Shown in pieces: positions 5,938-40,514 of a stretch of 64,000 nucleotides of DNA. Every line of letters begins with the position of its first letter. Positions within the stretch are counted from its first letter, which is position 1. The notes under the pieces are model-generated. The model was not told the origin of the DNA. It saw nothing but the letters and a program-made list of their open reading frames with translations, and made no database searches. The stretch covers positions 29,526 to 93,525 of the forward strand of contig CACXGN010000015.1 in the NCBI GenBank assembly GCA_902767225.1, written 5' to 3'. Made by a program: the position numbers and the translations under genes. The DNA is from an uncultured Eubacteriales bacterium (lineage in GTDB: Bacteria > Bacillota > Clostridia > Christensenellales > Borkfalkiaceae).

Positions 5938-6014
<77 letters not shown>

Positions 6015-10918: not shown

Positions 10919-10945
10919 CGTTGAAACGGTTGCGAGGTGGAAACA

Positions 10946-11305
10946 ATGAAAGACTTACTTTGCGAAGAAAACTGCGTGCATGAAAATATCGTGGAAAAGG
11001 TAAAAGAAAAACTTCCGGACGAAAATCTTATTTACGATTTAGCCGAACTGTTTAAAGTTTTCGGCGATTCCACAAGGACAAAAATTTTAAGCTGCCTTGA
11101 AGTTTCGCCCCTTTGCGTATGCGATATTTGCGAGTGCCTTAATATGAACAAGTCGGCAATATCTCACCAACTCCGTATTCTCCGTCAGGCAAAACTTGTT
11201 AAAGCCAGAAAAAGCGGAAAAGAAGTGATATATTCGCTTGACGACGAACACGTTTCAAAGATTTTCGAGTGCGGCATTTCTCACCTTTTGGAGGGCAAAA
11301 AATAA
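10946..11305 (+). CDS. ArsR/SmtB-family metal-sensing repressor (CadC/CzrA-like)
   Basis: ELFKVFGDSTRTKIL...CVCDI...ISHQLRILRQAKLV signature. ATG 10946 sits 5 nt after GAGGTGG; the track's GTG at 10937 lies inside that SD. Confidence 0.85.
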   Translation: MKDLLCEENCVHENIVEKVKEKLPDENLIYDLAELFKVFGDSTRTKILSCLEVSPLCVCDICECLNMNKSAISHQLRILRQAKLVKARKSGKEVIYSLDDEHVSKIFECGISHLLEGKK

Positions 11306-11517: not shown

Positions 11518-13509
11518 ATGACCAAAAAACAGAAAAAGAACCTTAAAAGGATTTTAATAGGGCTATCCGCGTTTATCGTGATATTACTTGCGGATATAAT
11601 ATTTAAGCACGCTTTTTCGGAAAGATTTCCGTTCGGGCTTGCTTCTATTATAGAAGGTAGTCTCGGCTGGCTTATTCCGTTCGGGCTTTATCTTGCCGTA
11701 TATTTATATATAGGTTTTAAGGTCTTGAAAAAATCCGCGATAAATATTTTGCACGGACAAATCTTCGACGAAAATTTTCTTATGTCCGTCGCAACGATAG
11801 GCGCTTTTGCGCTCGGGATCTATACGGGAATTACTACGGGTAGTCCCGAAGGGTTTGACGAAGCATGCGCGGTAATGCTCTTTTATATGCTCGGCGAGTG
11901 GTTTGAATCCTACGCCGTTATAAAGTCCAGAAAGTCCATAGGGGCGCTGATGGATATTCGTCCGGACGTTGCCAACCTTATTGATAATGACGAAAACATA
12001 ACCACCGTAGATCCGTCCACGGTGAAAGTAGGCGATATAATTCTCGTTCGCCCCGGCGAAAAAATACCGCTCGACGGAGTGATTATATCGGGCAGCAGCG
12101 ATATAGACGCAAAGGCGTTAACGGGGGAATCGCTCCCCGTTTCGGTAAAAGAAAAAGACGCGGTGCTATCCGGCACGGTAAATCTTACCGGAGCGATCAA
12201 GATAAAAACCACGAAAACTTTCGGCGATTCTACCGCTACAAAGATTTTAGAACTTGTGGAAAATGCGTCCGAAAAGAAGTCTAAAACGGAAAATTTTATT
12301 ACGCGGTTTTCAAAATTTTATACTCCGACGGTCGTTTTTGCGGCTATCCTTCTCGCCGTTGTTCCGCCGATCGCGATAGGGCTTTCGGGTGGCGGATATG
12401 CTTTCAGCGTTTGGATATACCGCGCGCTGATGTTCTTGGTCGTATCTTGCCCGTGTGCGCTGGTTATTTCCGTTCCGCTCTCCTTTTTTGCGGGGATAGG
12501 CGGGGCGTCGGCGCAAGGCATTTTGGTCAAAGGTTCGGTGTATTTTGAAAAACTGAATAAGGCGAACATATTCGTATTCGACAAAACGGGCACGCTCACG
12601 AAAGGGAATTTTTCCATAACCGAAGTTTACCCCGAAGAAAATAGGGAAGAAGTTTTATACTATGCAAGCATAGCCGAAAAAGATTCCGTTCACCCCATAG
12701 CGCAGTCTATTAAGGCGGCGGTTTCGGCGGATACGGCTTCTTATAGTTATAAAGAGATCGCGGGGCGCGGAACTATCGCTAAGGGCGAAAAAGAAATTCT
12801 TTGCGGCAACGGAAAACTTATGGAAGAATACGGCGTTGCATATAATAAAGTTTCCGCCGTCGGAACCGTGGTTTACGTTGCGGTAGATAGGAAGTTTATA
12901 GGATATATCGTTATATCCGACCAAGTTAAAGAAGAAACGAAAGAAGTTATTTCAAAATTGCAAGTCGGCGGCGCTAAAACCGTTATGCTGACTGGTGATA
13001 ACGAACGCATTGCAAAAAGCGTCGCGGATAGCGTAGGGATAAGCGAATATAAGGCAAATCTTCTTCCGCAAGGAAAAGCGGAAGAAGTTGAAAAAATGAT
13101 CAATAAAAAGGGCGAAAAAGACGTTTTATGTTACGTTGGCGACGGAATAAACGACGCGCCCGTGCTTATGCTGTCAGACGTAGGTATATCTATGGGCGGA
13201 GTCGGTAGCGACGCGGCGATAGAGGCTTCTGACGTGGTTTTGATAAAAGACGACTTAAAGACCTTGCCGCTTGCAAAATCCACCGCAAAAAAGACTATGC
13301 GCATAGTTTATGAAAACATAGTTTTCGCAATCGCCGTTAAAGTTATAATACTTATTTTATCCGCACTCGGAATAACAAACATGTGGATAGCGGTATTCGG
13401 TGATGTGGGGGTTGCCATCCTTGCGATACTTAATGCAATGCGCGCAAGTTCGGTCGGCAAAAAAAATTTGAAAAAACAAAAAATAATTGTTGACAACGGA
13501 AAAAAATAA
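11518..13509 (+). CDS. heavy-metal (Cd/Zn/Co-type) translocating P1B-type ATPase
   Basis: 663 aa. CPC membrane motif (SCPCALVIS), DKTGTLT phosphorylation site, GDGINDAP hinge. Confidence 0.9.
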   Translation: MTKKQKKNLKRILIGLSAFIVILLADIIFKHAFSERFPFGLASIIEGSLGWLIPFGLYLAVYLYIGFKVLKKSAINILHGQIFDENFLMSVATIGAFALGIYTGITTGSPEGFDEACAVMLFYMLGEWFESYAVIKSRKSIGALMDIRPDVANLIDNDENITTVDPSTVKVGDIILVRPGEKIPLDGVIISGSSDIDAKALTGESLPVSVKEKDAVLSGTVNLTGAIKIKTTKTFGDSTATKILELVENASEKKSKTENFITRFSKFYTPTVVFAAILLAVVPPIAIGLSGGGYAFSVWIYRALMFLVVSCPCALVISVPLSFFAGIGGASAQGILVKGSVYFEKLNKANIFVFDKTGTLTKGNFSITEVYPEENREEVLYYASIAEKDSVHPIAQSIKAAVSADTASYSYKEIAGRGTIAKGEKEILCGNGKLMEEYGVAYNKVSAVGTVVYVAVDRKFIGYIVISDQVKEETKEVISKLQVGGAKTVMLTGDNERIAKSVADSVGISEYKANLLPQGKAEEVEKMINKKGEKDVLCYVGDGINDAPVLMLSDVGISMGGVGSDAAIEASDVVLIKDDLKTLPLAKSTAKKTMRIVYENIVFAIAVKVIILILSALGITNMWIAVFGDVGVAILAILNAMRASSVGKKNLKKQKIIVDNGKK

Positions 13510-13518
13510 TAATATACT
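13490..13518 (+). promoter_or_regulatory. near-consensus promoter for the aro leader
   Basis: TTGACA (13490-13495), 17 bp, TATACT (13513-13518). Overlaps the last codons of the ATPase gene. Confidence 0.65.
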
Positions 13519-13539
13519 GAAAGCGTTGAGGCAAATATT

Positions 13540-13593
13540 ATGAGAAAATCCTTTTTCTTTTATTACGCATATTACTTTAAAAGACCATATTGA
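13540..13593 (+). CDS. candidate Phe/Tyr-rich leader peptide of the aro operon (17 aa)
   Basis: GAGG (13528-13531) lies 8 nt before the ATG. The frame is ATG AGA AAA TCC TTT TTC TTT TAT TAC GCA TAT TAC TTT AAA AGA CCA TAT TGA = MRKSFFFYYAYYFKRPY*. Too short to appear in the ORF track. Confidence 0.6.
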   Translation: MRKSFFFYYAYYFKRPY

Positions 13594-13663
13594 TAATATC
13601 GGTTATTTTTTGCGTATTGCTTAATTTATTTTGAGTATAAAGTGACCGATTGAAAAATCGGTC
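13583..13663 (+). promoter_or_regulatory. attenuator RNA: alternative 1:2, 2:3 (antiterminator) and 3:4 (terminator) helices
   Basis: 1:2 is 13583-13591 with 13595-13603. 2:3 is AUCGGUUAUUUU (13598-13609) with AAAGUGACCGAU (13639-13650), 12 bp. 3:4 is 13644-13651 with 13656-13663. Confidence 0.6.
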
Positions 13664-13674
13664 TTTTTTATTTT
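13644..13674 (+). terminator. intrinsic terminator directly upstream of the DAHP synthase RBS
   Basis: GACCGAUU-GAAA-AAUCGGUC (8 bp, GNRA loop) followed by UUUUUUAUUUU. Confidence 0.8.
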
Positions 13675-13692
13675 ATAAAACGAGGTAACATT

Positions 13693-14709
13693 ATGATTAT
13701 CATCATCAAGAAAGAACACGACGAAAAACAGTTAAACAACCTTATCGGTTGGGTGAAAAAGCAAGGGCTCGAAGTAGACTTATCGGAAGGCAGCCACTCA
13801 TCGGTTTTAGGGCTTATCGGCGACACGAGTAAAATAGATATCGACCTCGTCCGTTCGCTAGATATAGTAGAAAGCGTAAAACGTATCCAAGAACCGTTTA
13901 AGCTTGCTAACCGCAAGTTCCACCCCGAAGACACGATCGTAGACGTTTCGGGAGTAAAGGTCGGCGGCGATAACTTTACGATAATCGCGGGGCCTTGCTC
14001 GGTGGAGAGCGAAAAGCAGATTATCGGGATAGCCGAAGCGGTCAAAAAATCGGGCGCTAAACTTTTGCGCGGCGGAGCGTTTAAGCCGAGAACTTCGCCA
14101 TACTCTTTCCAAGGGTTAAGGGAAACGGGGCTCGAACTTTTGCTTAAAGCGAAAGCGGAAACGGGGCTTCCGATAGTTACCGAAATAATGAGCGTTCGGC
14201 ACATAGATTTATTTAAGGACGTAGACCTTATCCAGATAGGCGCAAGAGACATGCAGAACTACGAACTGTTAAAAGAAGTGGGCAAAACCAAAAAACCCGT
14301 TTTATTAAAGCGCGGATTTGCAAACACCATAGAAGAGTGGCTTATGAGCGCTGAATATATTATGAGTGAAGGCTCAAAAGACGTTATATTATGCGAAAGG
14401 GGAATAAGGACTTTCGAGCCGTATACGAGAAACACTTTGGACCTTTCGGCGGCGCCCGTTTTAAAAGAACTTACCCACTTGCCTTTAATAGTCGATCCGT
14501 CGCACGCGTCGGGGCTTGCAAGGCTTGTTAAACCGTTATCGCTCGCATCCGTCGGCGCGGGTGCGGACGGGCTTATGATAGAAGTGCATAACGATCCGCC
14601 GCACGCACTTTGCGACGGCGCTCAATCCGTTCGCCCCGAACAGTTTGACGACATAGCGAAAAGCGTTAACAACATGCTCCCCATTTGCGGAAAGAAACAG
14701 ATATTATGA
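13693..14709 (+). CDS. aroF: 3-deoxy-7-phosphoheptulonate (DAHP) synthase, type I-beta with N-terminal ferredoxin-like regulatory domain
   Basis: 338 aa. About 70 aa of N-terminal ACT/FL-like domain, then IAGPCSVES...KPRTSPYSFQG...DPSH motifs as in Thermotoga-type DAHPS. Confidence 0.9.
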   Translation: MIIIIKKEHDEKQLNNLIGWVKKQGLEVDLSEGSHSSVLGLIGDTSKIDIDLVRSLDIVESVKRIQEPFKLANRKFHPEDTIVDVSGVKVGGDNFTIIAGPCSVESEKQIIGIAEAVKKSGAKLLRGGAFKPRTSPYSFQGLRETGLELLLKAKAETGLPIVTEIMSVRHIDLFKDVDLIQIGARDMQNYELLKEVGKTKKPVLLKRGFANTIEEWLMSAEYIMSEGSKDVILCERGIRTFEPYTRNTLDLSAAPVLKELTHLPLIVDPSHASGLARLVKPLSLASVGAGADGLMIEVHNDPPHALCDGAQSVRPEQFDDIAKSVNNMLPICGKKQIL

Positions 14710-15557
14710 AAGTAGGAATTATAGGATTAGGGCTTATGGGCGGCTCTTTCGGAAAAACGCTCGTTAAAGCCGGAAAGCACACGGTATACGGAGCGGACGC
14801 TCTAGATAGCGTTATGTTAAAAGCCGAAATGGTTAAGGCTATAAACTTTAAACTTGACGAAAAGTCCGCAAAAGAAATCGACCTTTTAGTCGTCGCGGTA
14901 ACGCCCGATAAGGCGGAAGAAGTTATGAAAAAATACCTTCCGTATCTTAAAAACGGCGCGATCGTAACCGATTTTTGCGGAATAAAAAGAAAGATAGTAT
15001 CTTGTATGGAAAGACTATCGAAAGAATATCCGAACGTAACCTTTATCGGCGGGCATCCCATGGCGGGTCGGGAATTTTCTGGGATAGACCACTCCACGGC
15101 TACTCTTTTTGAAAACGCGTCTATGATACTCGTTAACGTCAACGCGGATATATTCACGCTAGATACCGTTAAACAGTTCTTTTTATCGGTTGGATTTAAA
15201 AACGTGGAGATATGCTCTGCCGAAACGCACGATAATAGGATCGCGTTCACTTCGCAACTTTGCCATATAGTATCCAACGCGTTCATCAAAAACAAAAGCG
15301 CCGAAGTGCACGACGGGTTTTCTGCGGGAAGTTATAAGGATATGACGCGCGTCGCAAGGTTAAACCCCGAAATGTGGGCGGATTTAATGACGGAAAACGC
15401 GGACTATCTTTTAAATGAACTTACCGAACTTTTGGATAATCTTAATAAATATAAAGTCGCCCTAAGTTTAAGCGACAGAGAAGAACTGAAAAAACTTCTT
15501 AAAGATGGCAACGACAGAAAACTTGCCATCGACGTTAAATCGCAGAAAAAGGATTAA
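14706..15557 (+). CDS. tyrA: prephenate dehydrogenase
   Basis: MKVGIIGLGLMGGSFG Rossmann motif and GGHPMAG motif. ATGA overlap with the aroF stop. The track start at 14685 lies inside aroF. Confidence 0.9.
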   Translation: MKVGIIGLGLMGGSFGKTLVKAGKHTVYGADALDSVMLKAEMVKAINFKLDEKSAKEIDLLVVAVTPDKAEEVMKKYLPYLKNGAIVTDFCGIKRKIVSCMERLSKEYPNVTFIGGHPMAGREFSGIDHSTATLFENASMILVNVNADIFTLDTVKQFFLSVGFKNVEICSAETHDNRIAFTSQLCHIVSNAFIKNKSAEVHDGFSAGSYKDMTRVARLNPEMWADLMTENADYLLNELTELLDNLNKYKVALSLSDREELKKLLKDGNDRKLAIDVKSQKKD

Positions 15558-15559
15558 GT

Positions 15560-16576
15560 ATGAAAAGTTTGCGAGTTAAAACCCAAAGCGAATACGAAGT
15601 AACTATTACGGATAGCCTTGCCGCTTTTACCGAAAAAGTATCCCTGCTTATAAAGGGCGATCTTGTGGCGGTTATAACCGATAGCAACGTAGACGGGATA
15701 TATAAAAACGAAATAGAAAATTCGCTTACCGGTAAAAAGGTCATTAAATTCGTCGTTCCCGCGGGGGAAGAAAGCAAGAACGTGGAAAATTATTTAAAGA
15801 TATTAAACGGGCTTGCGGATAACGGATTTACGAGAGAAGATACGGTAATAACTTTCGGCGGCGGAGTAGTGGGGGATCTGGGCGCGTTCGTCGCTTCCAC
15901 CTATATGCGCGGAATAAAGCTTATAGCGGTTCCTACCACGCTGCTTTCTATGGTGGATTCTTCAGTCGGCGGTAAAACCGCAATTAACCTTGAAAAGGGC
16001 AAAAACCTTTGCGGAACTTTCTATCAGCCGAGCGCCGTTTATATTAACACGGGGTTTTTGAAAACCCTTCCTAAAAAGGAAGTTTTGTGTGGCTTAGGCG
16101 AGATATTAAAATACCGCTTTATTTCAAAAGACGCAAAAATAGATATTTCAAAAATAGACGAAGACCTTATTTATAAGTGCTTGAAAATAAAAGCGGATAT
16201 AGTTTCAAAAGACGAAAAAGAGAGCGGAAAAAGAAAACTTCTAAACTTCGGGCATACCTTCGGACACGCTATCGAAAAACTTTCCCACTTTACTATTCCG
16301 CACGGAATATGCGTTGCAAAGGGTATCGTTTATGCGTTAAAAATTTCCGAAAAATATTTTGGGACTTCCGAAAAAGTAAGAAAAGATTATATTCTCACCG
16401 CAGAAAATTTAGGCATAGACGTTTCGTGCGAGTATGATTTAAACGAACTTATATCTCTTATTTCAATCGACAAAAAGCGGTCGGGAAAAGGTGCGGACTT
16501 CGTGCTTATAGACGATAAATTTCGTCCCGAAATCGTGAATATTTTACTATCGGAGATAAAAGGATATATTTTATGA
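15560..16576 (+). CDS. aroB: 3-dehydroquinate synthase
   Basis: 338 aa. GGGVVGDLGAF, PTTLLSMVDSSVGGKT and FGHTFGHAIE motifs. Confidence 0.9.
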   Translation: MKSLRVKTQSEYEVTITDSLAAFTEKVSLLIKGDLVAVITDSNVDGIYKNEIENSLTGKKVIKFVVPAGEESKNVENYLKILNGLADNGFTREDTVITFGGGVVGDLGAFVASTYMRGIKLIAVPTTLLSMVDSSVGGKTAINLEKGKNLCGTFYQPSAVYINTGFLKTLPKKEVLCGLGEILKYRFISKDAKIDISKIDEDLIYKCLKIKADIVSKDEKESGKRKLLNFGHTFGHAIEKLSHFTIPHGICVAKGIVYALKISEKYFGTSEKVRKDYILTAENLGIDVSCEYDLNELISLISIDKKRSGKGADFVLIDDKFRPEIVNILLSEIKGYIL

Positions 16577-17811
16577 ACGTTATGTTAACCCCGCACGAGT
16601 TAAAGGGAAAAACAGTCGCGCCGAGTTCAAAGTCTTACGCGCACAGATACATAATAGCGGCGTGCCTTTCGGGGAAGAAAACCTTAATAAAAAACGTGGG
16701 TTTTAGCGAAGACGTGCTTGCGACAATAAGGTGCATGAAGGCGATGGGCGCAGACTGTGAACTAACTTCCGGCTGCTTAAAAGTAAAATCCTTTTCGCCA
16801 AGAAAAAACGCTGTTTTAGATTGTGGCGAAAGCGGATCTACTCTTAGGTTTTTGCTTCCGATAGCCGCGGCACTAGGGGTAAACGCGACGTTTATCGGCA
16901 GCGAAAAACTTCTTTCAAGACCGCTTAGCGCACTTAAAGAAACTCTTATAAATCACGGAATTACCTTTGACGGATTTAAAATCAGCGGCAGGCTTTCCGG
17001 TGATAAATTCACGGTGGACGGCAGCGTCAGTTCGCAATACGTAACGGGGCTGCTGTTCGCGCTTGCGATACTTGAAAGAGAGTGCGAACTTGAAATAGTC
17101 GGAAATAAAGTTAGCGGCGGATACGTGGATATAACGCTTGACGTTTTAAAAAACTGCGGAATAAAAATTACGGAAACCGAAAACGGCTACAAAATATTTC
17201 CGTCTAAGTTTTTGCCGAATAATAAAATAACGATCGAGGGCGACTATTCGGGTGCGGCGTTTATGCTATCCGCAGGCGCGATTAAAAATAAGGTTTGCGT
17301 TAAGGGGCTTAACGCATGTTCAAAGCAGGGCGACCGGAAAATTATCGATATACTCTCAAAGTTCGGCGCGAGTGTAAAACTCGGCAAGTCTTCTATCTCC
17401 GTCCGAAAAAACGAATTGAACGCAATAACCTACGATTGCGAAGACGTGCCCGATCTTGTTCAGATTATTTCCGTTGTGGCGGCTTTTTCAAAAGGCGAAA
17501 GTGTGCTTAAAAACGTGGGCAGATTAAAGTATAAAGAGAGCGACAGGATAAAGGCGATAACCGATATGCTAGGTAGCGCAAAAATAGATTGCTATCTTGT
17601 GGAAAACGACCTGCATATAATAGGCGGAAAGCCGTTCGGCGGAAAGTTTTTCAGCAACAACGACCACAGAACGGCTATGTCTTCTACCATACTCGCGTGC
17701 TACGCTTCGGGAAATTCTATAATTGAAGACGCGGGCGCGGTTAAAAAGTCTTATCCGGATTTTTATTCCGATCTTAAAAGTTTAGGGGGAAAGTTCGATG
17801 TCGATATTTAA
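16573..17811 (+). CDS. aroA: 3-phosphoshikimate 1-carboxyvinyltransferase (EPSP synthase)
   Basis: 412 aa. SKSYAHR, GESGSTLRFL and DHRTAMS motifs. Confidence 0.9.
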   Translation: MNVMLTPHELKGKTVAPSSKSYAHRYIIAACLSGKKTLIKNVGFSEDVLATIRCMKAMGADCELTSGCLKVKSFSPRKNAVLDCGESGSTLRFLLPIAAALGVNATFIGSEKLLSRPLSALKETLINHGITFDGFKISGRLSGDKFTVDGSVSSQYVTGLLFALAILERECELEIVGNKVSGGYVDITLDVLKNCGIKITETENGYKIFPSKFLPNNKITIEGDYSGAAFMLSAGAIKNKVCVKGLNACSKQGDRKIIDILSKFGASVKLGKSSISVRKNELNAITYDCEDVPDLVQIISVVAAFSKGESVLKNVGRLKYKESDRIKAITDMLGSAKIDCYLVENDLHIIGGKPFGGKFFSNNDHRTAMSSTILACYASGNSIIEDAGAVKKSYPDFYSDLKSLGGKFDVDI

Positions 17812-18856
17812 AGGAGATAAACTCACCGTAGAAATTTACGGGGAATCGCATTCCGAAAAAATAGGCGCGGTAGTTTCGGGTATGCCCGAAACGACGGTAG
17901 ACCTTGAAAACCTTTCGCAATTTTTAGATAGAAGAAAGGCAAACGGCGGAGTTTTTTCCACCGCAAGAACGGAGAAAGACGAACCTGTGTTTTCGGGACT
18001 TTATAACGGAAAGATCTATGGCGATTATTCGTTTTATATCGTCAACGGCAACGTAAAGAGCAAAGATTATTCCGACCTTTTCGGAAAGCCGAGACCGTCG
18101 CATGCGGATTACGCTTGGCACTTAAAAGACGGAACGCTCGATTTTTCGGGCGGCGGCAGATTTTCGGGACGTATGACCGCGCCGCTTTGCGTGGTTGGCG
18201 GAATTTGCAAGCAATATCTTTTATCTAAGGGTATTAAAATTTGTGCTTACGTTTCCCAAACGGGAAACGTTATAGGCAAGTCTTATAAAGACGGAGAATT
18301 AAACTATAACGACATAATAAAAGAAAGCAAGGGCGAATATCCGTCTCTTTCAAAAAAACAAGAAATGCTCGACGAGATTGCGGCAGCAAAAAAAGACGGC
18401 GACTCTGTCGGCGGAAGAATAGAGTGCGTGATATTCGGGTTAAACGGCGGAGTAGGAGATAATCTTTTCGGCGGGTTAGAAGGCAAAATATCTTCGCTTA
18501 TTTATTCCGTTCCCGCGGTTAAAGGGGTAGAGTTCGGCGCGGGTTTTGATTTTATCAAAGGGCGCGGAGCGGAGATGAACGACGGGCTATATTATAAAGA
18601 CGGAAAGGTGGAATTTTTATCCAACAATTCGGGCGGAATAAACGGCGGAATAAGCAACGGCGCGCCCGTAACGATAGGCGTAGCAATGCGTCCGACTCCT
18701 TCGATAATGAAAGAACAACGCACGATAGACTTGGTCAATAAAAAAGACGTGAAAATCAAGATCGGCGGCAGGCACGACGCTTGCATTTTGCCGAGAGCCG
18801 TTCCGTGTATAGAATCTGCGGTGGCGATAGCACTTACCGATATAATAGGAGAATAA
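17798..18856 (+). CDS. aroC: chorismate synthase
   Basis: 352 aa. GESHS..., RPSHADY, GGGRFSGR and GGRHDAC motifs. Confidence 0.9.
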   Translation: MSIFKGDKLTVEIYGESHSEKIGAVVSGMPETTVDLENLSQFLDRRKANGGVFSTARTEKDEPVFSGLYNGKIYGDYSFYIVNGNVKSKDYSDLFGKPRPSHADYAWHLKDGTLDFSGGGRFSGRMTAPLCVVGGICKQYLLSKGIKICAYVSQTGNVIGKSYKDGELNYNDIIKESKGEYPSLSKKQEMLDEIAAAKKDGDSVGGRIECVIFGLNGGVGDNLFGGLEGKISSLIYSVPAVKGVEFGAGFDFIKGRGAEMNDGLYYKDGKVEFLSNNSGGINGGISNGAPVTIGVAMRPTPSIMKEQRTIDLVNKKDVKIKIGGRHDACILPRAVPCIESAVAIALTDIIGE

Positions 18857-18858
18857 AG

Positions 18859-20001
18859 ATGGAAGATTTAATCAAAATCAGAGAAAAAATAGACAGTATC
18901 GACGACGAAATAGTTAAAGAGTATATCGAAAGGATAAATCTGTGCGGCATGGTCGCCGAAGAAAAGAAAAAGACGGGCAAGGCGGTATCGGACTTGGAAA
19001 GGGAAAGGAAGATACTATACCGCATCACCGAAAACGTGCCCGAAAAATATCACACGCTATTAAAAGAACTGTATAGCACGATTTTTGCAACATCGAAAGC
19101 CTATCAGTCTTCGCTTATCGGAAGCGCGAGTAAAACCAAAAGCGCGATTGATAAAATAATAGAAGGCGGGCTAACAGACCTTCCGGAAAGAGCCGCGGTA
19201 GCGTGCCAAGGAGTTAAGGGTGCAAACAGCGGAACAGCCGCCGAAAAACTTTTTCCGATAAGCGATCTTAACTACTTTAAGACCTTTGAAGGGGTGTTCT
19301 CCGCGGTGGAAAGCGGGCTTTGCGATTACGGCGTTCTGCCAATTGAAAACAGCACGGCGGGATCGGTGCTCGACGTATACGACCTTATGAAAAAATACGA
19401 TTTTCACATTGTTCGCACCGTCAGAATAAAAATCGAACATTGTCTTGCGGCTATTCCCGGTGCGACTTTATCGGGAATAAAAAAGGTGGTATCGCACCCG
19501 CAGGCGATAAGTCAATGTTCGGAATACATAAAATCGCATAAGTTAGACTCCGAACTCGGAGAAAACACGGCGATCGCCGCTAAAAACGTTAGCGAACAAG
19601 AAGATAAAACGGTTGCGGCAATTTGTTCGCCGGACTGCGCCGCGCTTTACGGTTTGCAAATATTAGAACGCGCCGTGCAAAACAACGTCAATAATTTCAC
19701 GAGATTTATTTGCATAGCGAAAGACCTTGAAATATTTAAAGGCAGCGATAAAATAAGCGTTATGACCGCCTTGTCGCATAGACCGGGCAGCCTTAACGAA
19801 ATGCTTATGAAGTTTTCTACCTTGGGGCTTAACCTAACCAAGATAGAATCCCGCCCCATCGTAGGCACCGACTTTGAGTTTATGTTCTATTTCGACTTCG
19901 AAGGGGATATCACAAGATCCGACGTATTGAATTTGATCGCGGAACTCGAAAACAGTTCGGATAAATTCGTGTTCCTTGGAAGTTATAAAGAAATAATTTA
20001 A
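18859..20001 (+). CDS. pheA: bifunctional chorismate mutase / prephenate dehydratase with C-terminal ACT domain
   Basis: Starts MEDLIKIREKIDSIDDEIVKEY (CM_2 domain), then a PDT domain (GVKGANS...ENSTAGSV) and an ACT domain (SHRPGSL). ATG 18859 follows AGGAGAATAAAG. The track start at 18781 overlaps aroC. Confidence 0.9.
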   Translation: MEDLIKIREKIDSIDDEIVKEYIERINLCGMVAEEKKKTGKAVSDLERERKILYRITENVPEKYHTLLKELYSTIFATSKAYQSSLIGSASKTKSAIDKIIEGGLTDLPERAAVACQGVKGANSGTAAEKLFPISDLNYFKTFEGVFSAVESGLCDYGVLPIENSTAGSVLDVYDLMKKYDFHIVRTVRIKIEHCLAAIPGATLSGIKKVVSHPQAISQCSEYIKSHKLDSELGENTAIAAKNVSEQEDKTVAAICSPDCAALYGLQILERAVQNNVNNFTRFICIAKDLEIFKGSDKISVMTALSHRPGSLNEMLMKFSTLGLNLTKIESRPIVGTDFEFMFYFDFEGDITRSDVLNLIAELENSSDKFVFLGSYKEII

Positions 20002-20010
20002 GGTGAACTT

Positions 20011-20439
20011 ATGAAAATTTTAGTTATAAACGGCGTAAACTTAAATATGCTGGGCGTGAGAGAGCCGGATCTTTACGGTAAGCAAAGTTATAAAGCGCTT
20101 ATATCAAAAATAAAAAAAGAAGCGGCAAAACTCGGCGTAAAGGTAAAGTGCGTTCAGTCGAATTACGAAGGTAAGATCGTGGAGTTTATTCAAAAGGCGT
20201 ATAGAAAATTCGACGGAATAGTCATAAACCCCGGGGCGTATACTCATACTTCCGTCGCCATTTTAGATGCGCTTAAAAGCGTGAATATTAAAACGGTGGA
20301 AGTGCATATAACCGACGTGGACAGTAGAGAAGAATTCAGAAAGATAAGTTACGTAAGTCTTTATGCCGAAAAGAAAATTTCCGGAAAAGGGTTTGACGGA
20401 TATATAGAAGCAATTAAATATCTTTCAGAAAAAGTCTAA
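20011..20439 (+). CDS. aroQ: type II 3-dehydroquinate dehydratase
   Basis: 142 aa. ILVINGVNLNMLGVREP...INPGAYTHTSVA signature. Confidence 0.9.
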   Translation: MKILVINGVNLNMLGVREPDLYGKQSYKALISKIKKEAAKLGVKVKCVQSNYEGKIVEFIQKAYRKFDGIVINPGAYTHTSVAILDALKSVNIKTVEVHITDVDSREEFRKISYVSLYAEKKISGKGFDGYIEAIKYLSEKV

Positions 20440-34065: not shown

Positions 34066-34074
34066 AAATTAAAA

Positions 34075-34105
34075 AATAAAAAAGCCGACCGCTCGGTCGG
34101 CTTTT
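34075..34105. terminator. bidirectional hairpin terminator
   Basis: AGCCGACC-GCUC-GGUCGGCU flanked by A-runs and T-runs. Lies between convergent genes. Confidence 0.7.
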
Positions 34106-34119
34106 AACTTTTTAAATCG

Positions 34120-35196
34120 TTATCTCTTTTTAACGCAGTCGCCGGTAACGGCGTCTTGAAACATCATCCAGTATCCGTCGCCTTTCAAATCGAAAACCGA
34201 AAGGGGAATAAAAGTGCAAAAGCCTTTAAGTTCCTTTGGCGGCGAAGTCGAGTATTTTGCCGGCACGCCGTAGCATATATATTTTTCCTTTCCGTCTTCG
34301 CGGATGATCCCCACAACGTAATACTTATTATCCGAATAATTTATTCTTATCCATTTGCTATCCGTAAGGCTTACGGCAAGCCGTTCTTCGGGTGGAAACT
34401 TATTGAACATATCTTCTATTTCGTTTCTGACGCTTTCAAAGTAAGTGTTTCCTTCCGAATATTCTTTGCCGCTATCGTCGCCTGTTTCATTTTGAAACCC
34501 GCAAGCGCCGCTTTCGCCTTTTTCTGTTTTGCCTTGTTCTCCGCTAAAAGGCATTTCATTTTCAGTTCGAACATCTTCGCTAAACCTTCTTAAAAATTCT
34601 CGCTCTTCGTAAGATTCGTCCTTTTCGTAATAATTTTCGGTTGCCACAGCCTCGTCGTCGTAACTTTCGCGCATTGTTTTATCTCGCGGTTCTTCTTCCG
34701 GCTCGTCAATCCCCGGGATAGGTCCTAACGGCGGCATGGGCGGAAGAGTCGGCGGTATGGGGGCATATGGATTATCGGGTGCAAGATCTTCTTCGCGGTG
34801 CTTTTCTATGTATTTGTCTGTTATTTTTTTTCTAAAATCCGCCGCGTCGGTTAAAACGCTTTCCGACCTTGCGTAGGCGATAAGTAGAGGGATACCCTTT
34901 TCAACGTAGCATATCCCCGAAGAAAAACCGTTTTTAACGCTCGGCGTTACCCTGAAATTTTCGGTAAACGAAACGGGCCTTTTCCCGAGCGGGAAGGAAA
35001 ACAGTTTTCCGCCGCCGTCAAGCACGAAAGCGACGTATTCTCCGCAATCTGCGGCTTTAACGTTGATAAGCGAAAGATAAAAGGTCGCAACCCCGTTTTC
35101 GATTTCCACGCGCGATATTCCCGAAAGTTTTTTGCCGGGAGAAGAAAACCCACACTCGATTTCTTTTAGAACTAGAATTTGTTTTATAAATTCCAT
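34120..35196 (-). CDS. hypothetical protein with a central Pro-rich/acidic linker
   Basis: 358 aa. Folded-looking N-terminal (about 120 aa) and C-terminal (about 110 aa) regions joined by PDNPYAPIPPTLPPMPPLGPIPGIDEPEEEPRD and an acidic stretch. No signal peptide. No motif recognised. Confidence 0.5.
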   Translation of the reverse strand: MEFIKQILVLKEIECGFSSPGKKLSGISRVEIENGVATFYLSLINVKAADCGEYVAFVLDGGGKLFSFPLGKRPVSFTENFRVTPSVKNGFSSGICYVEKGIPLLIAYARSESVLTDAADFRKKITDKYIEKHREEDLAPDNPYAPIPPTLPPMPPLGPIPGIDEPEEEPRDKTMRESYDDEAVATENYYEKDESYEEREFLRRFSEDVRTENEMPFSGEQGKTEKGESGACGFQNETGDDSGKEYSEGNTYFESVRNEIEDMFNKFPPEERLAVSLTDSKWIRINYSDNKYYVVGIIREDGKEKYICYGVPAKYSTSPPKELKGFCTFIPLSVFDLKGDGYWMMFQDAVTGDCVKKR

Positions 35197-40291: not shown

Positions 40292-40497
40292 AAAAATAAA
40301 AAATCGCAATACCATTAAATATTGCGAAAGTTTCCGTATATCTAATAGCGCAACACAAATTCTTGTGACAGTTGCAAAGATATTTTCCCTGCACCCAGAA
40401 AACCGACTTTCGGGAAGATCGGTCTCTTCGGCGGAAGTTCCTTTCCCGCAAAAGCCAAAGCCCCGCTTTTGCTTATCATAAATTCCGCGCCTCTATT
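40292..40497 (-). ncRNA. lysine riboswitch (L-box) with terminator expression platform
   Basis: The minus strand reads AAUAGAGGCGCG...GCGGGAAAGGAACUUCCGCCGAAGAG...CUGGGUGCAGGG...CAACUGUCACAAG. This matches the conserved L-box blocks AGAGGCGC, GGGAAAGG, CGCCGAAG, CUGG.GCA and CUGUCA. It is followed by the hairpin UCGCAAUA-(8 nt loop)-UAUUGCGA and UUUUUUAUUUUU (40292-40327). Confidence 0.8.
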
Positions 40498-40514
40498 ATT
40501 TTTAATGTAAAACA

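Follow-up and report, generated by a model that had tools for sequence, protein, structure and literature searches.

The paradigms of leader-peptide attenuation are the Escherichia coli pheL-pheA and trpL leaders (Phe_leader and Trp_leader in Rfam), and the leu/phe leader of Lactococcus, also an Rfam family, is a further attenuator of this kind, from the Firmicutes. Here we describe a candidate member of the same class, found ahead of an operon for aromatic amino acid synthesis (the aro operon) in a 64,000-nucleotide stretch of DNA from an uncultured Eubacteriales bacterium of the Borkfalkiaceae (contig CACXGN010000015.1). This whole stretch is called the window, and all coordinates are positions within it. 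The closest functional analogue is the aroR leader peptide of Corynebacterium glutamicum, encoded upstream of aroF, which carries Phe-Tyr-Phe codons and was shown experimentally to respond to Phe (Neshat et al. 2014, as summarised in PMC11802643); according to that summary, Tyr availability is reported to have no effect. Like aroR, the window element is a putative leader-peptide attenuator with Phe and Tyr regulatory codons placed ahead of an operon that begins with 3-deoxy-D-arabino-heptulosonate-7-phosphate (DAHP) synthase. The C. glutamicum leader has three regulatory codons and belongs to a high-GC genome of the Actinomycetota, whereas the window leader has nine Phe/Tyr codons in an equal mix and precedes a seven-gene Phe/Tyr supraoperon; the two are likened by description, and no sequence relationship is expected.

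A second described system, uORFC-13-1, is a motif composed of an upstream open reading frame (ORF) and a terminator; its 24 reported representatives, from Acholeplasma and from environmental sequences without taxonomic assignment, all lie upstream of aroF (Brewer et al. 2021, PMC8632094). Its consensus contains −35 and −10 sequences, a ribosome-binding site, a start codon, a U-run encoding Phe and an adjacent intrinsic terminator, and it was proposed to be a Phe-sensing attenuator whose upstream ORF codes for "at least one" Phe (PMC8632094). Compared by description only, uORFC-13-1 and the window leader share aroF, the promoter, the ribosome-binding site, Phe codons and the terminator, whereas Tyr codons and an antiterminator are not described for the Acholeplasma motif. 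The elements that we describe in Clostridia may be homologous to uORFC-13-1 or may overlap its environmental members; the motif is apparently not in Rfam 15, judging from scans of the window and of 20 orthologous loci. Within the Firmicutes, His leader peptides are known from the Bacillus cereus group, Peptostreptococcaceae and Erysipelotrichales (PMC2965389, PMC9413887), and a Leu-rich attenuator peptide precedes ilv-leu in Staphylococcus aureus (PMC5794164). These leaders, which belong to the same phylum and the same mechanism class, serve other amino acids and operons, none of them a Clostridia aro operon, and they indicate that ribosome-mediated amino-acid attenuation is not foreign to Bacillota.

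The elements of the window leader, all on the forward strand, are as follows.

13490-13518, forward strand: sigma-70-type promoter of the leader transcript (TTGACA 13490-13495, 17-bp spacer, TATACT 13513-13518)
13528-13531, forward strand: Shine-Dalgarno sequence GAGG of the leader ORF, 8 nt ahead of ATG 13540
13540-13593, forward strand: leader ORF, MRKSFFFYYAYYFKRPY*, 17 codons plus UGA 13591-13593 (ATG AGA AAA TCC TTT TTC TTT TAT TAC GCA TAT TAC TTT AAA AGA CCA TAT TGA)
13552-13578, forward strand: codon run FFFYYAYYF (TTT TTC TTT TAT TAC GCA TAT TAC TTT), the proposed stalling sites
13583-13591, forward strand: region 1 (GACCAUAUU, the last leader codons), candidate strand of an anti-antiterminator or pause hairpin
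13595-13609, forward strand: region 2 (AAUAUCGGUUAUUUU), of which 13595-13604 pair with region 1 and 13598-13609 form the antiterminator 5' strand
13618-13637, forward strand: small hairpin GCUUAAU/AUUGAGU within the antiterminator loop, seen in predicted folds only, its sequence unconserved in the close-relative alignment A2
13639-13651, forward strand: region 3 (AAAGUGACCGAUU), of which 13639-13650 form the antiterminator 3' strand and 13644-13651 the terminator 5' arm
13644-13674, forward strand: intrinsic terminator, 8-bp stem 13644-13651/13656-13663, loop GAAA, U-tract 13664-13674
13682-13685, forward strand: Shine-Dalgarno sequence GAGG of the DAHP synthase gene, by sequence reading
13693-20439, forward strand: putatively regulated operon aroF-tyrA-aroB-aroA-aroC-pheA-aroQ, by Pfam and ORFs

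The computational evidence, namely the sequence elements, how well they are conserved, the mutually exclusive helices and the geometry of the ribosome footprint, leads us to propose with a probability of roughly 85% that the locus is a ribosome-mediated leader-peptide transcription attenuator, which would set expression of the aro operon by how much charged tRNA-Phe and tRNA-Tyr is available. We presume in this proposal that the ORF is translated, that the ribosome stalls and that readthrough depends on Phe and Tyr.

Nine of the 17 leader codons specify Phe (four) or Tyr (five), the two amino acids that the operon makes, and none specifies Trp. The promoter matches the consensus at 11 of 12 positions and was the top promoter-like site within 12500-15000 in a consensus scan; relatives keep TTGACA/TATA(C/A)T at this position (alignment A1). 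The promoter overlaps the end of the upstream P-type ATPase gene, namely its last codons and stop codon (13507-13509), and transcription would start near 13525. The terminator, GACCGAUU-GAAA-AAUCGGUC (13644-13663) followed by UUUUUUAUUUU, folds at −10.6 kcal/mol, and its sequence occurs once in the window. The GAGG at 13682-13685 lies downstream of this terminator, hence outside the hairpin, and is not sequestered. The alternative helix, 13598-13609 with 13639-13650, has 12 bp (10 Watson-Crick and two G-U pairs) and an energy of −10.8 kcal/mol on its own; it takes seven of the eight nucleotides of the terminator 5' arm, so that the two helices are mutually exclusive. When only 13595-13650 were folded, before the terminator 3' arm (region 4) exists, the energy was −15.0 kcal/mol. 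The antiterminator complementarity in the window had z = −3.2 to −4.0 relative to shuffles, and the leader region 13520-13692 as a whole had a fold z of −2.5. An initial annotation of the window, made from the sequence alone, had proposed the promoter with its 17-bp spacer, the leader ORF with its Shine-Dalgarno sequence and Phe/Tyr composition, and the 12-bp antiterminator, and we found all of them exactly as it had placed them. The terminator with its T-rich tail, likewise where that annotation had put it, was also reported by a terminator scan, and Pfam bore out the proposed operon content and the N-terminal ferredoxin-like domain of the DAHP synthase.

This arrangement resembles that of the E. 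coli pheL and trpL leaders in having a Shine-Dalgarno sequence, regulatory codons clustered in a short ORF whose stop codon is near region 2, 2:3 and 3:4 helices that exclude each other and a terminator with a U-tract. The leader of the window matches those leaders neither in sequence nor by covariance model, would sense two amino acids (Phe and Tyr) rather than one, and would control the common shikimate pathway together with both terminal branches; its 1:2 hairpin is also much weaker than in the trp paradigm.

Conservation of the leader was assessed at loci collected by a DAHP synthase search, which yielded 80 genome loci and 80 metagenome loci, close relatives (83-89% identity) being obtained through ten exact-protein look-ups. 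The DAHP synthases of the genome loci were 62-91% identical to that of the window, and the metagenome scan found no relative above 73% identity. A leader was scored when an ATG-started ORF of 8-45 amino acids, at most 300 nt upstream, had at least five Phe or Tyr residues in eight codons. Such an ORF was present in 62 of 81 regions (the 80 genome loci and the window), as against none of the 81 reverse complements and about 2 of 81 predicted by dinucleotide shuffles; with the metagenome loci added, it was found in 126 of 156 distinct upstream regions (about 80%). The genome records among these loci are labelled Christensenella/Catabacter-like, Oscillospiraceae, Lachnospiraceae, Acutalibacteraceae and similar, and the leaderless loci come from records labelled as other phyla (Bacteroidaceae, Alloprevotella, Spirochaetales/Treponema and Coriobacteriia), plus a minority of those labelled Clostridia. 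Cultured organisms among the carriers include Oscillibacter valericigenes Sjm18-20 (L062, AP012044.1 near 3.570 Mb), Angelakisella massiliensis (L022) and Hominicoprocola fusiformis (L023). A core Shine-Dalgarno sequence lies at −17 to −5 in 97 of the 126 orthologous leaders, compared with 9% of background windows. At least two Phe and at least two Tyr are encoded by 122 of the leaders, Trp accounts for 14 of their 3214 residues, and the other AT-rich codons (Lys, Asn, Ile and Leu) are not enriched. Beyond its Phe/Tyr content the peptide sequence is unconserved, as can be seen in the relatives' peptides MFNKAYFYFGYYFRRPYC, MKKVFNYYFYNFYFFRPY and MQNLFAANFYYYYYFFTRKK and in MSTFTFAAEYRYFSFTYYFGKAYFGLAENECV of Oscillibacter valericigenes, whereas the frame, the ATG, the Shine-Dalgarno sequence and the mixed Phe/Tyr run are kept. 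This is the pattern predicted by selection for a translated sensor of Phe-tRNA and Tyr-tRNA, and not by chance or by a purely structural RNA.

The genes upstream of the leader vary from locus to locus and lie on either strand (PALP, PAP2, RelA/SpoT, PemK, an aminotransferase and others), indicating that the leader travels with the aro operon. In ten public contigs that were looked up, the Phe/Tyr leader ORFs are absent from the gene calls. A scan of the whole window for other short ORFs that have a Shine-Dalgarno sequence before them, a terminator after them and an excess of any amino acid found the aro leader alone convincing; its three other hits were rejected, as they lie inside genes or inside a lysine riboswitch.

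Loci of the Oscillospiraceae and Lachnospiraceae types (L015, L018, L022, L027, L028, L039, L047, L052, L062, L074, L075, L076, L080 and others) have longer leader ORFs of 25-45 amino acids, which share C-terminal tails past the Phe/Tyr run (...SNSDLCCK, ...FGKAYFGLAE...). These tails probably encode the antiterminator 5' strand within the ORF rather than a conserved peptide. At one locus (L168, about 471-520) the sequence just 5' of the leader resembles a tRNA 3' end (GGTTCGATTCCCGCAGGGAGTACCA) and no obvious −35/−10 was seen; that leader may be transcribed from further upstream.

An intrinsic terminator lies between the leader ORF and the DAHP synthase gene in 61 of the 62 leader-bearing genome regions and in 123 of all 126 leader-bearing loci. 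The retention of the terminator next to variable upstream genes argues that it is a part of the leader rather than of the upstream gene. Both helices were examined in the close clade (16 sequences, alignment A2), where regions 2, 3 and 4 are the most conserved noncoding blocks (ATATCGGTTATTTT, ATGACCGAT and ATCGGTCATTTT) and ATATCGGTTATTTT of region 2 is nearly invariant. The terminator stem is 93.7% paired there, and both sides have changed in three of its pairs. For the antiterminator the figure is 90.6%, compared with 28-49% when the partner strand was slid by one to three columns; both sides have changed in four antiterminator pairs, and the covariation score of this helix was reached by none of 500 shuffles. 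The clearest covariation is that of one relative (L002), in which regions 2, 3 and 4 read UACGGU/ACCGUA/UACGGU where the window has AUCGGU/ACCGAU/AUCGGU.

A covariance model (R1) of the consensus of regions 1-4 (ATATCGGTTATTTT ... TGACCGAT ... ATCGGTCATTTT) scored its 16 training sequences at 40-92 bits; beyond these, a few loci gave hits that were no more than marginal (E 0.03-0.8). In the window it found no second copy, the hit at 34074-34162 on the reverse strand (E = 0.12) being at chance level. Since R1 recovers the close clade only, and leaders further away have no sequence in common with it, the sequence family is narrow, whereas the architecture is broad. For distant loci, a search for the antiterminator begun at the stop codon gave a weak signal; their leader ORF is often longer, with the antiterminator strand within its 3' part, and the test was then begun at the end of the Phe/Tyr run. 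It compared the duplex energy of the segment past the run and the terminator 5' arm with that obtained with reversed or shuffled arms. Over 123 loci the mean was −10.8 kcal/mol, as against −8.5 kcal/mol with the reversed arm (Wilcoxon p = 3e-11), and with the close clade excluded (n = 106) it was −10.6 as against −8.9 kcal/mol (p = 5e-8). In these 106 distant loci the partner strand begins a median of 18-21 nt past the last Phe/Tyr codon and, in 82% of them, overlaps the stretch that a ribosome at the stop codon would cover.

The window leader was also folded with a masking ribosome, for which a footprint of −15 to +14 nt around the A site was assumed, and with the transcript ending at 13652 or at 13672. 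The resulting probabilities of the two helices were as follows.

End 13652 (region 4 not made), ribosome on any Phe/Tyr codon 13552-13576: antiterminator 0.92-0.93, terminator 0
End 13652, ribosome on the last sense codon or UGA: antiterminator 0, terminator 0
End 13672 (full length), ribosome on UGA: antiterminator 0, terminator 0.99
End 13672, ribosome at 13552 or 13561: antiterminator 0.80-0.87, terminator 0.08-0.15
End 13672, ribosome at 13570 to 13576: antiterminator 0-0.01, terminator 0.99
End 13672, no ribosome: antiterminator 0.12, terminator 0.87

Stalls at the first Phe/Tyr codons thus favour the antiterminator even at full-length equilibrium, helped by a pairing between regions 1 and 4 that is described below; in the ribosome-free full-length RNA, the 1:2 hairpin (P = 0.79) stands alongside the terminator. 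Three expectations of the initial annotation were borne out by these analyses: a conserved short Phe/Tyr-rich ORF upstream of orthologous DAHP synthase genes (126 of 156 regions, controls near zero), compensatory changes in the 2:3 and 3:4 helices (four and three pairs, respectively, in the close clade), and a masked fold in which a ribosome at the stop codon gives the terminator and one on the Phe/Tyr codons gives the antiterminator before region 4 is made. Together with the conserved Shine-Dalgarno sequence and terminator, they support its core reading of a stalling attenuator that senses Phe and Tyr.

In the mechanism that we envisage, transcription would start at the 13490-13518 promoter, a ribosome would load at the GAGG and AUG 13540, and the 17 codons would be translated while RNA polymerase makes the next ~130 nt. 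With ample Phe and Tyr, the ribosome would reach the last sense codon or UGA (13588-13593) and its footprint would cover region 2 (13595-13609); region 3 would then be left without an upstream partner, and the 13644-13663 hairpin with its U-tract would terminate transcription ahead of aroF. When Phe-tRNA or Tyr-tRNA is scarce, the ribosome would stall in FFFYYAYYF (13552-13578) and leave region 2 free, which would pair with region 3 as the latter emerges, sequester seven of the eight nucleotides of the terminator 5' arm and allow readthrough into the operon.

Several results weigh against this reading. If the variants L002 and L003 are set aside, the sequence of both helices (2:3 and 3:4) is mostly conserved within the close clade; few events therefore underlie the covariation, and a better score than that of shuffles (here 0 of 500) can arise among related sequences even where there is no structure. 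In only 16% of the 106 distant loci does the antiterminator individually reach z < −1.64, and the shared phylogeny of the loci inflates the family-wide p values (3e-11 and 5e-8). At −3 to −4 kcal/mol the 1:2 hairpin is weak, and it shows no covariation; in the ribosome-free transcript ending at 13652 the antiterminator prevails at equilibrium (P = 0.88 vs 0.05 for the 1:2 hairpin). Termination would therefore seem to need a ribosome that covers region 2 at the stop codon. We infer that such a ribosome would have to be in place when the polymerase is ~50-80 nt ahead, which implies close timing. Lastly, with a ribosome stalled on any of the three final codons of the run (13570-13576), the terminator is favoured at full-length equilibrium, so that readthrough there would require kinetic trapping, with the antiterminator forming first. 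The E. coli trp leader likewise relies on the antiterminator forming first.

One could suppose a genuine switch between terminator and antiterminator whose setting is determined by a trans factor, such as a TRAP- or PyrR-type protein or an uncharged tRNA, and an ORF that is not the sensor; the helices alone are silent on what selects between them, and T-boxes and RNA-binding proteins are common for amino-acid operons in Bacillota. No T-box or other Rfam family was found in the window leader (E <= 10) or in 20 orthologous leader-bearing loci, however, and no repeated protein-binding motif was seen. A trans factor would also leave unexplained the in-frame Phe/Tyr run with its ATG and Shine-Dalgarno sequence, the sole feature kept across very divergent sequences, and the distances among codon run, antiterminator strand and stop codon, which fit ribosome footprints. 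We regard this explanation as very improbable.

A translated ORF that acts otherwise than through 2:3/3:4 competition, by protection from Rho or RNases or as a functional hydrophobic Phe/Tyr peptide, would be in agreement with the conserved ORF, Shine-Dalgarno sequence and composition, and it would account for the weak 1:2 helix and for the many distant loci whose predicted antiterminators are individually no better than shuffles. Such a route would not explain the strong intrinsic terminator that follows the ORF in 123 of 126 loci, nor the significant family-wide complementarity between the terminator 5' arm and the segment past the run, which covaries in the close clade, and a functional peptide is hard to reconcile with a sequence that is unconserved beyond its Phe/Tyr composition; we consider it unlikely. 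Mere coincidence, in which the hairpin is the terminator of the upstream ATPase gene and the ORF a by-product of T/A-rich intergenic DNA, draws on the 25% G+C of the region, where TTT and TAT codons are common, and on the position of the terminator, 135 nt downstream of the ATPase stop codon. It is scarcely credible given the frequency of such ORFs in relatives (62 of 81, as against ~2 of 81 in shuffles and 0 of 81 on the reverse strand), the lack of enrichment of the AT-rich Lys, Asn, Ile and Leu codons, the persistence of leader and terminator among relatives whose upstream genes and their orientation differ, and the 11/12 promoter between the ATPase stop region and the ORF. Attenuation by a ribosome stalled on Phe/Tyr codons is thus the explanation that we prefer.

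The remaining pairings of the leader are less clear-cut. The 1:2 hairpin joins 13583-13591 to 13595-13604 (AAUAU-C-GGUU, with C13600 bulged) at −3.1 to −4.1 kcal/mol, and its inner helix is 82.5% paired in the close clade, with no compensatory change. An outer extension, UACGCA 13564-13569 with UGCGUA 13611-13616, appears in the minimum free energy fold and brings the energy to −8.6 kcal/mol; it was rejected as a conserved feature, as it is 57% paired in relatives. The initial annotation had assigned the 1:2 hairpin an anti-antiterminator role. The hairpin itself is present, but the role is only partly supported in view of the low energy, the lack of covariation and its loss to the antiterminator at the decision point. 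The "RPY*" or "KPY*" endings of the leaders, conserved in the clade, probably reflect the RNA sequence of region 1. Directly after the hairpin, at 13603-13612, stands UUAUUUUUUG, whose Ts are nearly invariant in the clade; hairpin and U stretch together resemble a pause signal and could synchronise the polymerase with the ribosome. However, region 3 offers these Us a partner as well (AAAGUGA or AAAAUGA).

Regions 1 and 4 can pair as well: AAAAGACC at 13579-13586 is perfectly complementary to GGUCUUUU at 13660-13667 (the terminator 3' arm and the first Us). With a ribosome stalled early in the Phe/Tyr run, the minimum free energy structure is a nested 1:4 and 2:3 fold that locks both terminator arms. 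The 1:4 pairing may be a by-product of the resemblance of region 1 to region 3 and of region 2 to region 4. In one relative (L163), inspected by eye, it has one mismatch.

A comparison with known RNA families placed the leader in none of them. With Rfam 15, positions 13000-14200 at E <= 10 gave only chance-level small RNA hits driven by the terminator, and the whole window at the gathering threshold gave a lysine riboswitch and one tRNA only, with no T-box. There was no hit within the leaders of 20 leader-bearing orthologous loci, nor a T-box in 19 leaderless loci. A T-box and the known Rfam families (Phe_leader, leu/phe leader, Trp_leader and others) were therefore rejected for these leaders, as no covariance model matched. 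In the closest genome relative (L001), a T-box leader (129 bits) lies at 157-393 on the reverse strand, opposite to and just upstream of the aro leader; it belongs to the divergent gene and not to the aro operon. The initial annotation had called an attenuator of this kind unusual and possibly undescribed. This was overstated, given the leader control of aroF in C. glutamicum, the Acholeplasma motif and the Firmicutes His and Leu leaders. For the Clostridia version itself, no description of a Phe/Tyr leader on aro operons was found in Rfam 15 or in the searchable literature, which yielded analogues from other taxa only and leaves most subscription journals outside its reach.

The mechanism class is that of the trpL/pheL paradigm, and no new mechanism is involved. 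What is noteworthy is the breadth of the element, found at ~80% of the 156 related loci examined, including those with Christensenella/Catabacter-like, Oscillospiraceae and Lachnospiraceae labels, its consistent specificity for Phe and Tyr without Trp on an operon that also feeds Trp synthesis, and the synchrony of ribosome and polymerase that it would imply in Clostridia. We would put at about even odds the broader proposition that mixed Phe and Tyr, Trp-free leader attenuation is the predominant, possibly ancestral and so far uncatalogued control of aro/DAHP synthase operons across gut and rumen Clostridia with these three labels. Should that be true, its prevalence would imply kinetic synchrony between transcription and translation on these leaders, in contrast to the picture of "runaway transcription" that Johnson et al. 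reportedly drew in 2020 from Bacillus subtilis, and the leaders would offer a natural test of how closely ribosomes trail RNA polymerase in Clostridia. If confirmed, the element would provide a rule, readable from sequence, for aromatic amino-acid control in many abundant and mostly uncultured gut and rumen Clostridia, with sensing through charged tRNA-Phe and tRNA-Tyr and not tRNA-Trp. It would add a broad instance of amino-acid-sensing, ribosome-mediated attenuation to Bacillota, a phylum for which control by T-boxes and RNA-binding proteins is considered typical. There would also be a gain for annotation, since the leader ORFs are missing from the gene calls of the ten public contigs and the element matches no Rfam family, and it might serve as a compact Phe/Tyr-responsive part for synthetic biology in anaerobes.

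The genes of the operon, assigned by Pfam, are as follows.

13693-14709, forward strand: aroF-type DAHP synthase with FXD domain
to 15557, forward strand: tyrA
15560-16576, forward strand: aroB
16573-17811, forward strand: aroA
17798-18856, forward strand: aroC
to 20001, forward strand: pheA (CM-PDT-ACT)
20011-20439, forward strand: aroQ

The N-terminus of the DAHP synthase is the ferredoxin-like FXD domain, PF18152. The genes aroE and aroK are missing from the operon. Mechanical ORF starts would place the beginnings of tyrA at TTG 14685 and of pheA at TTG 18781, overlapping the preceding genes by 25 and 76 nt; in pheA the CM_2 domain starts at residue 33, and the true starts of both genes are probably further downstream. 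Upstream of the leader, a regulator of the ArsR/HTH_5 family (10937-11305, forward strand) is followed by the E1-E2 P-type ATPase of 663 amino acids (11518-13509, forward strand), and the two look like a metal-efflux pair of the CadC/CadA type. Elsewhere in the window are the lysine riboswitch aptamer (RF00168, 84 bits) at 40338-40503 on the reverse strand and one tRNA-Arg (ACG) at 5938-6014 on the forward strand.

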